A stretch of DNA of 64,000 nucleotides. Source: Aestuariivirga sp. (GTDB taxonomy: Bacteria > Pseudomonadota > Alphaproteobacteria > Rhizobiales > Aestuariivirgaceae). The stretch spans positions 6,494 to 70,493 of the forward strand of contig JBGTJO010000090.1 in assembly GCA_041745135.1 (NCBI GenBank), in the 5' to 3' direction. This document shows, piece after piece, positions 47,638 to 51,188 of this stretch (position 1 is its first letter; every line of letters begins with the position of its first letter). Under the pieces are notes generated by a model. That model worked only from the letters and a program-made list of their open reading frames with translations. It made no database searches and was not told the DNA's origin. A program made the position numbers and the translations under genes.

Positions 47638-48420
47638 ATGAACTCGGATGCGCCAGATGAAGACCCGCAACTGGAACCTGAGCTTATTGAGTGCAAGCGC
47701 CGGGTTGAGGCGGAATTCCCTCCGGTGGACAAAAACAGCCGCCCTCCGACAAGAGCCGATTTCCAGGATACCTCAGTCGGCGATGTACAGAATCTTGCCC
47801 AAGCTCTGCTCGACGATGCAAATACTGGAGTCGCAATCGGGCGCGTAAAATTGCACGGCGACTTGACTGATGCTGAAGAGCAAAGCGTTGGGCAAGTGAT
47901 CAACGCTTATGCTGCATCTCAAGGGTGGGGTCCAAGGGACTGGATATCGCTAATGCTTCCGCTTGCCCTGGCCCGCCGCGTGGCCGAGGGCGAAATTGCG
48001 TCCGTATTTTCCGAAGACGCCAAAACATTTTTGCGGCAACGCCTGGCTTACGGCGACTACGGCAATTTTACCGGGCAGCCGCCCAAGATGCCGTTCGACG
48101 ACTTTTTCCGCATATCGCAAGACCTGATGGCGGACAAGGAATATATGCATTGGCTGAATGAGTACAGAAGGAATTATAAAACTGAAGAGAGAAGGCTATG
48201 CATCCTGCACTACAAGCTTCACGGCGAGATAGAAAACAAATACAAAAAGAAATACGGCGTCAGGGGGGCCAAAACCTTCTGGTTTTTCTATTTTATCATC
48301 CAATTTCTGCACGGCGACTTGCCGCTCGACGACAGGGAAAAGCTGCGCGCTCATATGAGCGCGCATTGGCATCGTTTTGAAAGAGATATACTGGAGCTTA
48401 CCCAATGGCTGACCGTCTGA
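47638..48420 (+). CDS. Hypothetical cytoplasmic protein, candidate immunity partner of cassette 1
   Basis: RBS GGGAG, TAATG coupling, no signal peptide, overlaps the start of 48405 by 16 nt. Immunity role is inferred. Confidence 0.68.
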   Translation: MNSDAPDEDPQLEPELIECKRRVEAEFPPVDKNSRPPTRADFQDTSVGDVQNLAQALLDDANTGVAIGRVKLHGDLTDAEEQSVGQVINAYAASQGWGPRDWISLMLPLALARRVAEGEIASVFSEDAKTFLRQRLAYGDYGNFTGQPPKMPFDDFFRISQDLMADKEYMHWLNEYRRNYKTEERRLCILHYKLHGEIENKYKKKYGVRGAKTFWFFYFIIQFLHGDLPLDDREKLRAHMSAHWHRFERDILELTQWLTV

Positions 48421-51188
48421 TCATACTCGATAGTGGAGCCATCGAAAACCTGTTCACCGCCGGCGGCGAGCAAGCTTGGTCCCTCCTTTTTAAAACAGGG
48501 CAGCGTGTCGTTGTTCCGGATTACATTCTTACAGAATTGGGAGGAATTCCCCCGCAACTTCCGGATAACTCGCCTAATCCAAATTTTGGCTTAAGGCAAA
48601 GGTTCGAAGACTGGATGTCGGGGCGCAGTTCTTCCGAAATCGTCATAGTACATTATGAGCCGCCTCCGCGCCCCGGAGATTTGGGCGACAACATTATCCG
48701 GGACTTAATGAATGGTGACACGCCGCAGGCAAGAGCTGCGCTCGCCGATGCCGGAATTTCCTCCGGCTCCGAGTTCCGTCTTCTGTCGGACGACTCAAAG
48801 TTCGTCTTTGACATAAAGGCCGAGACGGATGACTTCGGCAAAGCCGGATTAGGATCAGTCGGGCAGTACGCGCCGCCCTACTACGGGACTTTCGAATTCT
48901 TGAACGAGCGCCGAGTGAATGGAGACCTCACCGAGGCTGCATATGATGTTCTTCGCAGCAATTTTGAAGGTTCGCACCGCGTGACCTCGCTTTCCGGCGG
49001 AGGCTCCCCGGGCACCCTTGATTTCAAAGGCCAGATTATCCCGCACGGCGGGGGAGGTAATTACGTTTACGAACAGCTTGTCAAAGTGATTGGACCTTTC
49101 ATTGACGATGAAGGGGGCGGCGTTGACGCTCATATCGCCCTTAAGGGCGGTCTGGTTGGCGGCGCACTTGCCCTGTCGGCCAAGTTCGGGCTGATTGGCG
49201 ACGTTCTGTCGTTCAGTATGACGGTCACCACGGCGGCTGACTTGCGGGAAGAAGGCAGGATAGCCGAGGCAAACGAACTTTGGCTCCGGTACATATTTGA
49301 GACAGGGGGTGGCACGGCTGGAACGGTCCTTGGATTTATCGCGTCTGGAATGGCTCTCAAGGGATTGGGGGGGCCGCTCGTTCCAGTCATCGGTGCTTTG
49401 TTAGGTGGCGTTGCCGGGTCGCTTGCCGGAGCACCTGTCGGCAGCGCTTTATACAAGGCAGCACCTGAACTCTTCGATCCAATATTTGCGAAGATTTATG
49501 ATGTCGCGGATGCCGCCGCCGCAGTAGGGAACAAGTCGGTGTTCGAAGCGATGTATGATGCCATTACCGATGGCTTCGGTTTTACCCTCAATCCGGCAAC
49601 AGGAACAGCCAATTCCGATCTCATGTGGGCCGCGGACTATGGCGAACGCAGGGGCAACGATGGCGACGACGTGCTTATCGGCTGGAAGCCGGATTATATT
49701 TTTGCAGGGGACAAGGTTGATCCCGACAATCCCAATAGTGAAGTAGCGCAGACCGACCTGCGCCTTACTCTTGACGGCGGCAAGGGCGACGATTGGCTGG
49801 TGGTTCTCGGCGGCACGGGCGCCATCACGGTGGGTGGCGAGGGCAGCGACTTCATCTTCAACACATCCTACAAGGGCCAGCTCTACGGCGATACGATCGA
49901 CGGCACGGGCTCCTCCGACCCGGACGTGTTCTGGTACTGGCCGGACACCTTCATCATGGATGCCGATTCCAACGATCTCCTGCAGATGTTCGGCTTTCCG
50001 CTGCTTGGGGGCTCGAACTCGATTGCCGGCATTCCCGCAGGCGATGGCTCGATGGCGATCGACTGGCTGTTCTGGTTTGTGTTCTATGGCGTGAGCACCA
50101 GCGGCCAGCTGCTGATCTATAACTCGCTTGCCGATCTCGTGGACGGCGACCAGGGCTCAGGCATCATGGCCGTCGAGAACTACGAGTTCGGCGGCTTCCG
50201 GGATGAAACCTACGGCGTCCCGGCGGCGGGCGATCTCGGCATGACGTTCCGCATCTACAATCCAAGTGCCGCGGATGCGCTGGAGATTTCAATATTCAAT
50301 GCGGTGTGGGGCTCGCTCTTCACCTATATCGACGTGCTGTTCAACCTCGCGAAAGCGCTGCACTGGCAGCCGGTCGACGATCCCCTGGTGCTCGATCTCG
50401 ATGGCGACGGGATCGAGACCACTTCCGAGAGCCAGTCCGGGGTGCGCTTCGATCTCGATGGGGATTTCTTCGCGGAGAAGACGGGGTGGCTCAAGAGCGA
50501 TGACGGCTTCCTGGTCATCGACCTGAACGGCAATGGGCGGATCGACGATATCTCCGAGATGTTCGGAGGACCCGATCAATCGGGCTTCGCCGATCTGGCT
50601 TCAATGGATTCGAACCTCGATGGCGTGATCACCATTGCCGATGCCGGCTTTGCTTCGCTGCGCGTCTGGCGCGATCTCGACCAGGACGGGGTGACGGACC
50701 AGGGCGAGCTCACCACGCTGGCGCAGCAGGGGATCGTGTCGCTGGGCCTCTCGAACACAGCACTCGATCTCGAGACGCCGCAGGGCAACCGCCTGCTGGC
50801 CCATGGCAATTACACCCGGGCCGACGGCACGACGGGCAAGATGTTCGATCTGGCGTTCGACACCGATCCAACCGACACCGTCTACCGGGGCGAGCGCGGG
50901 ATCGCGGCCTGGCTTTCCGCCGAGACGCTGCCCAACGCCAAGGGCTTCGGCTCGATGACCGATCTCGCCACCGCTGCTTCCAATGAGTTTACGCTGGCGG
51001 AGACGGTCATGGCGGCGGCGGCTTCCATGACGGCGCCCGATCTCGAAGACATCCGCGCCAAGGCAGCGCCGATCTTCGGGGAATGGGCGCAGTCGCTGGA
51101 GCTGACGCGCGAGCTCCTTAGCTACAACGCGGACGCGCTGGCGGCTAATGACAATGGCTCGCAACTGGCGCGTGCAGAGGCTGCCTAA
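48405..51188 (+). CDS. Truncated (orphan) RTX-family cassette protein: PIN-like N-domain, Gly-rich hydrophobic helices, self-processing module, ssrA-like tail
   Basis: IILDS..(D9), VVVP.Y...EL (E44), DLGD (D95), LLSDD (D130); D659-PLVLDLDGDGIET; ends AANDNGSQLARAEAA. No C-terminal RTX repeat region. Confidence 0.8.
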   Translation: MADRLIILDSGAIENLFTAGGEQAWSLLFKTGQRVVVPDYILTELGGIPPQLPDNSPNPNFGLRQRFEDWMSGRSSSEIVIVHYEPPPRPGDLGDNIIRDLMNGDTPQARAALADAGISSGSEFRLLSDDSKFVFDIKAETDDFGKAGLGSVGQYAPPYYGTFEFLNERRVNGDLTEAAYDVLRSNFEGSHRVTSLSGGGSPGTLDFKGQIIPHGGGGNYVYEQLVKVIGPFIDDEGGGVDAHIALKGGLVGGALALSAKFGLIGDVLSFSMTVTTAADLREEGRIAEANELWLRYIFETGGGTAGTVLGFIASGMALKGLGGPLVPVIGALLGGVAGSLAGAPVGSALYKAAPELFDPIFAKIYDVADAAAAVGNKSVFEAMYDAITDGFGFTLNPATGTANSDLMWAADYGERRGNDGDDVLIGWKPDYIFAGDKVDPDNPNSEVAQTDLRLTLDGGKGDDWLVVLGGTGAITVGGEGSDFIFNTSYKGQLYGDTIDGTGSSDPDVFWYWPDTFIMDADSNDLLQMFGFPLLGGSNSIAGIPAGDGSMAIDWLFWFVFYGVSTSGQLLIYNSLADLVDGDQGSGIMAVENYEFGGFRDETYGVPAAGDLGMTFRIYNPSAADALEISIFNAVWGSLFTYIDVLFNLAKALHWQPVDDPLVLDLDGDGIETTSESQSGVRFDLDGDFFAEKTGWLKSDDGFLVIDLNGNGRIDDISEMFGGPDQSGFADLASMDSNLDGVITIADAGFASLRVWRDLDQDGVTDQGELTTLAQQGIVSLGLSNTALDLETPQGNRLLAHGNYTRADGTTGKMFDLAFDTDPTDTVYRGERGIAAWLSAETLPNAKGFGSMTDLATAASNEFTLAETVMAAAASMTAPDLEDIRAKAAPIFGEWAQSLELTRELLSYNADALAANDNGSQLARAEAA
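49761..51115 (+). repeat. Shared cassette segment, copy 1 (~1.35 kb direct repeat with ~53995-55355)
   Basis: Collinear from RLTLDGG.G.DWL to SLELTREL. The 3' two-thirds are nearly identical at the DNA level. Confidence 0.92.

Follow-up and report, generated by a model that had tools for sequence, protein, structure and literature searches.

The PIN fold is mainly familiar from cell-internal toxin–antitoxin (TA) pairs. What, then, would such a domain do at the head of a protein that resembles a secreted RTX toxin? Here we address this question for a locus of Aestuariivirga sp. lying in a stretch of 64,000 nucleotides (hereafter, the window), where the initial annotation had described a PIN-like nuclease as the payload of a T1SS/RTX scaffold. 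The domain opens an ORF of 927 aa (P0001, 48405..51188), which continues with a hydrophobic segment, a conserved region, a self-processing module (SPM) and a short tail. All features given below lie on the plus strand.

In the frame that starts at ATG 48405, the four motifs initially proposed as the PIN acidic tetrad, LIILD9SGAI, VVVPDYILTE44L, GDLGD95NII and LLSDD130SKF, translate as first read, the codons of D9, E44, D95 and D130 being located at 48429, 48534, 48687 and 48792. A HMMER scan yielded 26 homologues, and in the 17 that were aligned for the tetrad count these are the sole four, among the 29 D/E positions of residues 1-200, that are acidic throughout. D9 and E44 are invariant (17/17 each), the D95 column contains 13 D and 4 E, and that of D130, 16 D and one E; the runner-up acidic position, D129, reaches 12 of 17. 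Such conservation exceeds chance expectation. In the AlphaFold model of the domain (pLDDT 94.1), D9 lies just after strand 4-8, E44 within the helix that follows strand 34-38, D95 is the first residue of helix 93-103 and D130 comes just after strand 123-128. The acids of VapC-like PIN domains stand after S1, in the helix after S2, at the start of H4 and after S4 (Matelska et al. 2017, PMC5499597), and the four residues occupy all of these defining positions. Conservation and model positions thus bear out the proposed tetrad.

The model adopts the three-layer alpha/beta/alpha PIN fold. In a structure comparison, each of the 14 matches reaching Z>=8 is a PIN domain, the best of them having Z 10.0 with an rmsd of 3.6 over 152 aligned residues, and in a structure atlas (TM 0.53-0.63) eight of ten matches are PIN or DUF3368 by name or Pfam, the closest clusters being DUF3368/COG2405 (TM 0.63 to DUF3368). 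The structural check proposed for residues 1-200 therefore returned the expected fold, although Foldseek against the PDB and viral libraries gave no match at E<=0.001. The domain shares 8-17% sequence identity with solved PIN domains, a PDB sequence search with it gave nothing significant, and none of the Pfam, NCBIfam and PHROG models match it in the window protein. PIN models give weak matches to its homologues, of which the best is PIN_12 at E 0.0011 and 19.9 bits vs a cut-off of 32. By sequence comparison, the domain is placed in a divergent PIN subfamily, outside the catalogued Pfam families. Modelling points to residues 1-197 (48405..48995) as a COG2405/DUF3368-like PIN nuclease with a full putative catalytic tetrad; the identity initially assigned to 48405-48810 is hence supported, while the domain extends beyond the end given there.

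Behind the PIN domain, glycine-rich hydrophobic helices (residues ~243-350, 49131..49454; hydropathy peaks at 250-268 and 320-346) constitute a candidate membrane-translocation segment. They are followed by an Asp659-Pro660 cleavage site and an FrpC-type self-processing module (residues 660-821, 50379..50867): residues 659-821 match PDB 6sjw/6sjx with E 6.3e-37, and precomputed annotation assigns the SPM to Pfam PF26745. The scaffold is thus of the self-processing FrpC/ApxIVA type, and not of the pore-forming HlyA type to which the initial annotation had referred. The protein stops at residue 927 with a cassette-specific tail (51117..51188) ending in ANDN...AA, which resembles the tmRNA tag of the same genome and has counterparts of similar kind at loci L022 and L057. 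It carries only three nonapeptides, all of them N-terminal to the SPM; no C-terminal RTX repeat block, PF00353 match or T1SS signal was found in it, and the RTX hemolysin model NF033943 scores 8.8 bits vs a cut-off of 1000. Lacking both the repeat block and the secretion signal, the window copy is therefore not itself a secreted RTX protein. Its sequence, with the 927-codon frame uninterrupted, reads as that of a truncated orphan cassette, predicted to be non-exportable in its present form.

Upstream of the ORF are an HlyC-family RTX acyltransferase gene (46269..46907; PF02794, E 1.6e-11), a decayed SPM left over from an older cassette (46954..47284) and the first copy of a tail-plus-leader repeat (47301..47621), which matches 51158-51489 at 82% identity over 337 nt. 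Downstream, a gene for a 194-aa protein with an N-terminal hydrophobic helix (51465..52049) precedes that of a full-length giant SPM-RTX protein (P0004, 8426 aa, 52055..64000, running past the window), for which it is a candidate immunity gene. This giant protein has a different N-terminal domain, without the hydrophobic helices, an Asp856-Pro857 site at 54620, and RTX repeats. Residues 448-904 of P0001 (49746..51116) form a segment common to both proteins, with 88% amino acid identity and, at the DNA level, ~89% identity to 54008-55356. A misassembly is an unlikely cause of the truncation, because the repeats have diverged (69-97% identity per 100-nt window) and the tail is also found in the older remnant. 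T1SS components are encoded on other contigs of the same genome. A promoter scan remained at chance level (4 observed vs 3.2 expected).

Whether PIN domains of this subfamily ride on exportable carriers must be read from the homologues. In P0006 the same PIN heads an RTX protein of at least 2948 aa, with repeats present, whose gene reaches the contig end. P0006 and P0035 fall into one 90% cluster, being 96-100% identical over residues ~600 to 2900 and 87% identical in 501-600, while no significant match was found between their N-termini. Near-identical carriers bearing unrelated N-termini constitute direct sequence evidence of payload swapping; the swap boundary is that of P0001 and P0004, at the start of the 49746..51116 segment. 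Furthermore, the PIN lies beside T1SS and HlyC genes at three loci (L023, L054 and L056), and in Salinarimonas rosea an RTX protein with an AHH nuclease, accompanied by Imm11, is encoded directly downstream of a PIN orphan; Imm11 is also found in the array L028. The placement of PIN on a T1SS/RTX scaffold is consequently upheld at the level of the family, as an N-terminal payload, and not for the truncated window ORF. Interchangeable toxin domains on a conserved carrier, a feature of polymorphic toxins, are found in three arrays (L022, L028 and G192) as well as in the P0001/P0004 and P0006/P0035 pairs. In all carriers examined the variable domain sits at the N-terminus, and not at the C-terminus as in classical polymorphic toxins. 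Other PIN homologues (G192, G256) belong to toxin/immunity arrays amid prophage head genes, and the hydrophobic helices are retained in homologues on both RTX and prophage carriers.

The profile of the subfamily was absent from 155 other genomes of the genus and from 400 drawn from the class, and was present in 6 of 400 drawn from the order. Word-based homologue searches found almost nothing, and neither pattern scans of contigs from genomes and metagenomes nor comparison of the PIN domain with plasmid and phage collections gave any match. Many homologous loci are decayed, carrying frameshifts, stop codons or IS elements (L022, L023, G160, G109, G057, L054 and L057), and at none of the loci found could a PIN-RTX gene be followed as far as its C-terminal signal. 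Four SPM-like matches in G025 were considered as a cassette array and rejected, for they sit in other surface proteins.

The gene directly upstream of the PIN ORF (47638..48420, 260 aa from its likely start in an ORF open from 47554) is a candidate cognate immunity gene, whose stop overlaps the start of the PIN ORF. Its product is all-helical, without a hydrophobic segment, and probably consists of two ~110-aa repeats. It has no significant Pfam match and no structure-atlas match, and a fold search gave a best Z of 5.4, without a clear match. This PIN-specific family is present in at least ten loci. The partner gene immediately precedes PIN in the window and at L021, L022, L026, L027, L029, G160, L054, G192, G256 and G109, in tandem runs of three and four copies at G256, and a leave-one-out profile recovers the window partner with E 1e-18; the partners at L020, L023, L057 and L028 are weak profile matches (E >= 0.1). 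The family accompanies PIN on RTX, prophage and third, small carriers, and is unrelated to the 51465-52049 gene. The predicted PIN–partner complex scored 0.02, which we count neither for nor against pairing. From gene order and co-occurrence, the upstream overlapping gene would encode a cytoplasmic immunity protein. An adjacent partner and the existence of orphan cassettes (window, L022 and L028) agree with polymorphic toxin systems, at the genomic level only.

Several known systems resemble the locus in part. VapC-like PINs (COG2405/DUF3368 PF11848; Dis3/Rrp44, SMG5/6, Utp24) share the fold and the four acids. Unlike them, the window PIN is fused to hydrophobic helices and a self-processing module, members of its family sit on a secretion carrier, and the partner belongs to a ~110-aa helical repeat family without clear match to known antitoxins. 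FrpC of Neisseria meningitidis and ApxIVA of Actinobacillus pleuropneumoniae share the variable N-terminus, the Asp-Pro SPM and a small partner encoded directly upstream (FrpD or a Cmi-like immunity gene); their C-terminal RTX carrier is matched by P0006 and by the 8426-aa downstream protein, but not by P0001. The ApxIVA N-terminus and its upstream immunity ORF are a reported antibacterial pair, and FrpC/FrpD has been proposed as an effector/immunity pair. Whereas theirs is a domain that acts on the envelope, with a partner that is a lipoprotein or periplasmic, the payload predicted here is a metal-dependent nuclease acting in the cytoplasm, where its partner would reside too. CDI/Tps (tpsC), MafB-CT and Rhs orphans are likewise tandem non-secretable cassettes with a segment homologous to the full gene and their own immunity gene (PMC5472700), whereas here the warhead is N-terminal, the orphans are upstream and 3'-truncated, with their own leader and start codon, and the immunity gene precedes the toxin gene. 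The phage-encoded MuF polymorphic toxins, too, form toxin/immunity arrays in prophage head-gene regions (Jamet et al. 2017), as at G192 and G256; however, they have a constant N-terminus and a variable C-terminus, while the PIN carriers vary N-terminally. PIN is unmentioned in that paper, and a Pfam scan found no MuF match.

Taken together, we consider it likely that PIN serves an antibacterial RTX toxin system of the FrpC/ApxIVA type as one N-terminal warhead among several that can replace one another, the window copy being a displaced orphan. The computational support comprises the fold, the tetrad, the SPM, the truncation, the repeat structure, the co-occurrence of the partner and the payload exchange on a near-identical carrier. 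A full carrier would be exported through the T1SS via its C-terminal signal; Ca2+ would fold the self-processing module, and the ensuing Asp-Pro cut would free an N-terminal piece of ~660 residues. If the warhead is a nuclease and its immunity protein cytoplasmic, it follows that the released piece enters a bacterial cytoplasm, and the hydrophobic helices behind PIN may assist its crossing of the target inner membrane. There PIN would cut nucleic acid, most likely tRNA, rRNA or mRNA; such RNase activity, toxicity and cytoplasmic action are predicted by analogy with the family. The product of the overlapping upstream gene would serve as cytoplasmic immunity protein, kept when the PIN cassette was, in this scheme, moved upstream as a shortened orphan that cannot be exported. 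As a reservoir, the orphan could exchange with the current warhead by natural recombination via the shared 1.35-kb segment. Nuclease activity, RNA substrate, toxicity, bacterial target, immunity, entry route and recombination in this strain are all putative elements of the scheme.

The order of partner and PIN genes, overlapping at stop and start as in vapBC, could also belong to an intracellular type II TA addiction module that stabilises the island, with an incidental or secondary RTX fusion. The nearest structural clusters, DUF3368/COG2405, are described as potential TA toxins (PMC5499597), and P0001 lacks an export signal, so that the orphan of this genome could in practice behave as such a module. 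Nevertheless, this explanation seems improbable to us: in every homologue that is long enough, the PIN continues in frame into hydrophobic helices and a carrier, it sits in a swap slot common to the AHH nuclease and other warheads, tandem partner copies are typical of immunity genes, and the same slot is taken by envelope-type partners for other warheads. Moreover, a vapBC toxin is small and single-domain, in contrast with a 927-aa multidomain fusion. A vapBC antitoxin is encoded upstream and has a DNA-binding domain of RHH, HTH or AbrB type; the partner here is upstream, overlapping and all-helical, without significant Pfam or clear fold match, which we weigh neither for nor against the TA reading.

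A secreted PIN nuclease clipped by its SPM to the surface of a eukaryote such as a grazing protist, with a partner that protects the producer only before export, we regard as very unlikely. N-terminal fragments of FrpC and ApxIVA do link covalently to other proteins, deletion of the ApxIVA SPM lowers virulence (PMC7078468), and the adjacent HlyC acyltransferase is known from eukaryote-directed RTX toxins; however, cassette swapping and retained orphan immunity genes fit kin competition (PMC5472700), the PIN-partner pair is also present in prophage arrays that lack RTX and HlyC, and the ApxIVA N-terminus is itself antibacterial. Finally, the fold might not be that of a toxic RNase at all. PIN-like domains differ in substrate (PMC5499597) and many homologous copies are decayed, which would suit a nuclease that targets DNA, an extracellular one that scavenges nutrients, or, in this genome, a relic that has fallen silent. 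Yet a scavenger would have no need of a dedicated, co-travelling cytoplasmic partner or of translocation-type helices, the window copy retains its 927-codon frame and all four acids, and a DNase changes the substrate and leaves the toxin reading standing; we give this family of explanations little chance.

The interchangeable-warhead reading would have consequences beyond this locus. According to the reference survey of polymorphic toxins, these do not use PIN (Zhang et al. 2012, PMC3482391), and the catalogue of the PIN superfamily makes no mention of members that are secreted, RTX-borne or polymorphic (PMC5499597); within the open-access papers that our literature check covered, the PIN-RTX family fills a gap in both surveys and joins TA toxins to interbacterial weapons. 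The balance tips slightly, in our opinion, towards a broader proposition, namely that a PIN subfamily with its own immunity family left the TA world to become a mobile interbacterial warhead, borne by at least three unrelated, N-terminally varying carriers and delivered to the target cytoplasm after calcium-triggered self-cleavage. These carriers would comprise SPM-RTX proteins exported by a T1SS, proteins encoded among the virion genes of prophages, and a third one of small size. If true, this proposition would give TA and polymorphic systems a metal-dependent nuclease in common, an overlap that Zhang et al. 2012 reported not having found, and would set an enzyme payload that acts in the cytoplasm on an antibacterial RTX protein of a T1SS. 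A small domain, four named residues and a named candidate inhibitor are now at hand for testing these ideas, which address the long-standing question of the purpose of FrpC-type clip-and-link RTX proteins.

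The 927-residue protein encoded by the plus-strand ORF at 48405-51188 belongs, at its N-terminus, to the PIN superfamily, both by predicted fold and by its four acidic residues D9, E44, D95 and D130. The initial annotation had placed these residues in four motifs, all of which were found in this ORF with correct numbering, and its choice among the acidic residues was the right one: only these four, out of 29 acidic positions within residues 1-200, are acidic in 17/17 homologues, the runner-up, D129, being acidic in 12/17. The alignment comprises the 17 homologues spanning the motif region, drawn from 26 hits (almost all aligning from residue 1) of HMMER against 1.84 billion representatives, plus four found in genomes of the same order. 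Residues 1-220 match no family in Pfam, NCBIfam or PHROG.

Structure prediction and fold searching, which the initial annotation had proposed, did yield a PIN fold. The AlphaFold2 model, built on a 24-row alignment, has a mean pLDDT of 94.1 and places D9 after strand 1, E44 in the helix after strand 2, D95 where the cross-over helix begins and D130 after strand 4, the same four places as the acidic positions defined for VapC-like PIN domains (PMC5499597). Foldseek by itself gave weak matches only, with VapC11 on top, and the closest atlas clusters are DUF3368/COG2405-type PIN proteins (TM 0.63). Against 48,161 solved chains, the top structural match reaches Z 10.0 (152 aligned, rmsd 3.6). PIN domains account for the 14 rows with Z of at least 8, e.g., exosome Dis3/Rrp44, SMG5/6, Utp24, Utp23 and Nmd4, including some entries without PIN in their title that we take to be such; VapC toxins appear lower, at Z 6-8, and no non-PIN row occurs before rank 28. 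The domain ends at about residue 197, and residues 1-197, as modeled, represent a PIN subfamily that is divergent and has the complete putative catalytic set.

The PIN domain had also been described as the payload of an RTX toxin, which is true in other genomes. The main correction concerns the copy in the window: since it contains three nonapeptides and stops 23 residues past the end of its homology with the downstream RTX protein, it is devoid of the repeat block and of the C-terminal type I secretion system (T1SS) signal, and a complete RTX protein is ruled out for this ORF as encoded in the window. Glycine-rich hydrophobic helices occupy residues ~243-350, and a FrpC self-processing module (SPM) is matched at residues 659-821 (E 6e-37), with a predicted cut site at Asp659-Pro660; in FrpC and ApxIVA, the Asp-Pro bond is cleaved in calcium and the freed Asp can be linked to lysine (PMC7078468). 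Over residues 448-904, the protein shares 88% identity with residues 643-1101 encoded by the next large ORF. The tail resembles the tmRNA tag of the same genome, ANDNYAPVALAA. ANDN-like motifs, often with a terminal Ala, were repeatedly observed at or near the ends of truncated cassettes or SPM remnants (window 51117-51188 and, in homologous loci of other genomes, L022:~11990-12025, L057:1-522 and L021:1-600).

In the locus, an HlyC gene (46269-46907) is followed by the decayed remains of an SPM (46954-47284) and by a tail-plus-leader repeat of 337 nt (47301-47621) that shares 82% identity with 51158-51489. Partner gene 1 (47638-48420) comes next and overlaps the start of PIN; behind the PIN cassette lie another leader, partner gene 2 (51465-52049) and then the full-length RTX gene, whose 8426-residue product has 46 nonapeptide matches and continues past the window. 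The arrangement mirrors that of the tpsC and mafB-CT orphan arrays (PMC5472700). The T1SS parts of this genome sit on other contigs, HlyD scoring above cut-off on C133 and TolC on C67 and C196, where an HlyB-like ABC gene scoring below cut-off adjoins the TolC gene of C67. The leader repeat covers the opening codons of partner gene 2. In repeat copy 1 (window 47599-47640), these codons make up a mini-ORF of 13 codons, with a stop that overlaps the ATG at 47638 (TAATG), which suggests translational coupling and a recombination point within the partner start. On the minus strand, a 22-nt perfect palindrome within partner gene 1 (48344-48365) is terminator-like. In the full-length RTX protein, the N-terminal domain (52055-53040) has homologues of ~30% identity on 115 Ralstonia megaplasmid records, with no annotation among the matches listed.

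In other genomes, PIN domains do head RTX proteins. One homologue, P0006, carries PIN at the head of an SPM-RTX of at least 2948 residues that reaches its contig end. P0035, in the same 90% cluster, is 96-100% identical to it over residues ~600-2900 and 87% over 501-600, and their N-termini are unrelated, which constitutes direct evidence that warheads are exchanged on a single carrier; the boundary falls at the first nonapeptide, which is also where the similarity between the window's PIN protein and its downstream RTX starts. T1SS and HlyC genes adjoin PIN in three loci (L023, L054, L056), and in G160 and L057 PIN is found on long SPM-RTX genes broken near the 5' end. The broken state is common among homologous loci, and none of the PIN-RTX genes examined extends, as read, to the secretion signal. 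Behind a frameshifted PIN orphan, Salinarimonas rosea encodes Imm11 and an AHH-nuclease RTX, a known polymorphic toxin/immunity pairing. Imm11 and PIN are also among the cassettes of an array with a common tail, L028; its stretch 1345-10427 holds four cassettes, the common tail resembling the HlyC end, and no full-length RTX. A bacterial gasdermin gene (PF26164) and trypsin-like protease genes adjoin another HlyC/PIN-RTX locus (L020:35-5488).

Further carriers were also found. In genomes G192 and G256, PIN again comes with the hydrophobic helices and with members of the partner 1 family, and it heads 812-862-residue proteins encoded between prophage terminase, head-tail connector and capsid genes; in G192 the C-terminus is common to three sister genes whose N-termini differ. 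These arrays (G192:C1:3965000-3984000 and G256:C1:1024900-1037000; L040, L043) encode 630-860-residue proteins with a common C-terminus, different N-termini and a partner gene upstream of each, and resemble a polymorphic toxin family that is phage-borne and has its warheads at the N-terminus; no MuF match was found in the array proteins. At L027, PIN heads a 443-residue protein whose neighbor has the same C-terminal half and a different N-terminal domain. Within 7635-11941 of this locus, the common half has an Arg-rich end and a stretch with faint likeness to zeta toxins, and each of the two genes has upstream partner genes; they are possibly a third N-variable toxin carrier, for which type IV secretion would be a guess. 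At L049 (G080:C2:155807-156759), an integrated element holds a PIN fragment and, upstream of it, a gene for 106 residues, beside a recombinase-like gene; no carrier is visible there. The PIN family is rare and patchy, being found in 6/400 genomes of the order, 0/155 other genomes of the genus and 0/400 genomes drawn from the class.

One partner family lies directly 5' of PIN in the window and in L021, L022, L026, L029, G160, L027, L054, G192, G256 and G109. Among 948 local ORFs, a profile from which the window protein had been left out recovered partner 1 at E 1e-18 and matched neither partner 2 nor Imm11; the partners at L020, L023, L057 and L028 match the family profile weakly. Long forms resemble two copies of a ~110-residue helical unit (hhalign probability 70%, E 4e-5), short forms have one, and three- and four-copy runs precede the two PIN genes of G256. 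The model of partner 1 is all-helical, and a hydrophobic segment is absent from partner 1 and present in partner 2. PIN and one partner gene moving together among carriers is the behavior of a toxin-immunity module, and it is from this co-occurrence that we infer an immunity role for partner 1.

The carrier type is already known: ApxIVA has an antibacterial N-terminus and, upstream, an ORF that is an immunity gene, as summarized from Slivenecka et al. 2025 (cited in bioRxiv 10.64898/2026.10.19.759954), and such a pair has been proposed for FrpC/FrpD (PMC6759196). The PIN payload appears to be new, as PIN domains were considered apparently unused in polymorphic toxins (PMC3482391), secreted, RTX or polymorphic members are unmentioned in the survey of the superfamily (PMC5499597), PIN is unmentioned in two later toxin surveys, and no description of it on RTX or polymorphic toxins was found in the open-access literature.

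The cassette is not a vapBC module, and an intracellular addiction module of the toxin-antitoxin kind seems improbable; a eukaryote-directed effector, or else a non-RNase or silent relic, each appear more improbable still. By far the most likely reading is that of an antibacterial warhead, working as a VapC-type nuclease would, on an ApxIVA-type carrier. On a full carrier, the T1SS would export the PIN-RTX, calcium-triggered Asp-Pro cleavage would free the PIN piece, the hydrophobic helices would aid passage across the inner membrane and PIN would cut RNA inside the target, the partner blocking it in the producer. As an antibacterial warhead, the window copy would be a non-exportable spare that would still provide immunity and could be exchanged via natural recombination through the 1.35-kb shared segment.
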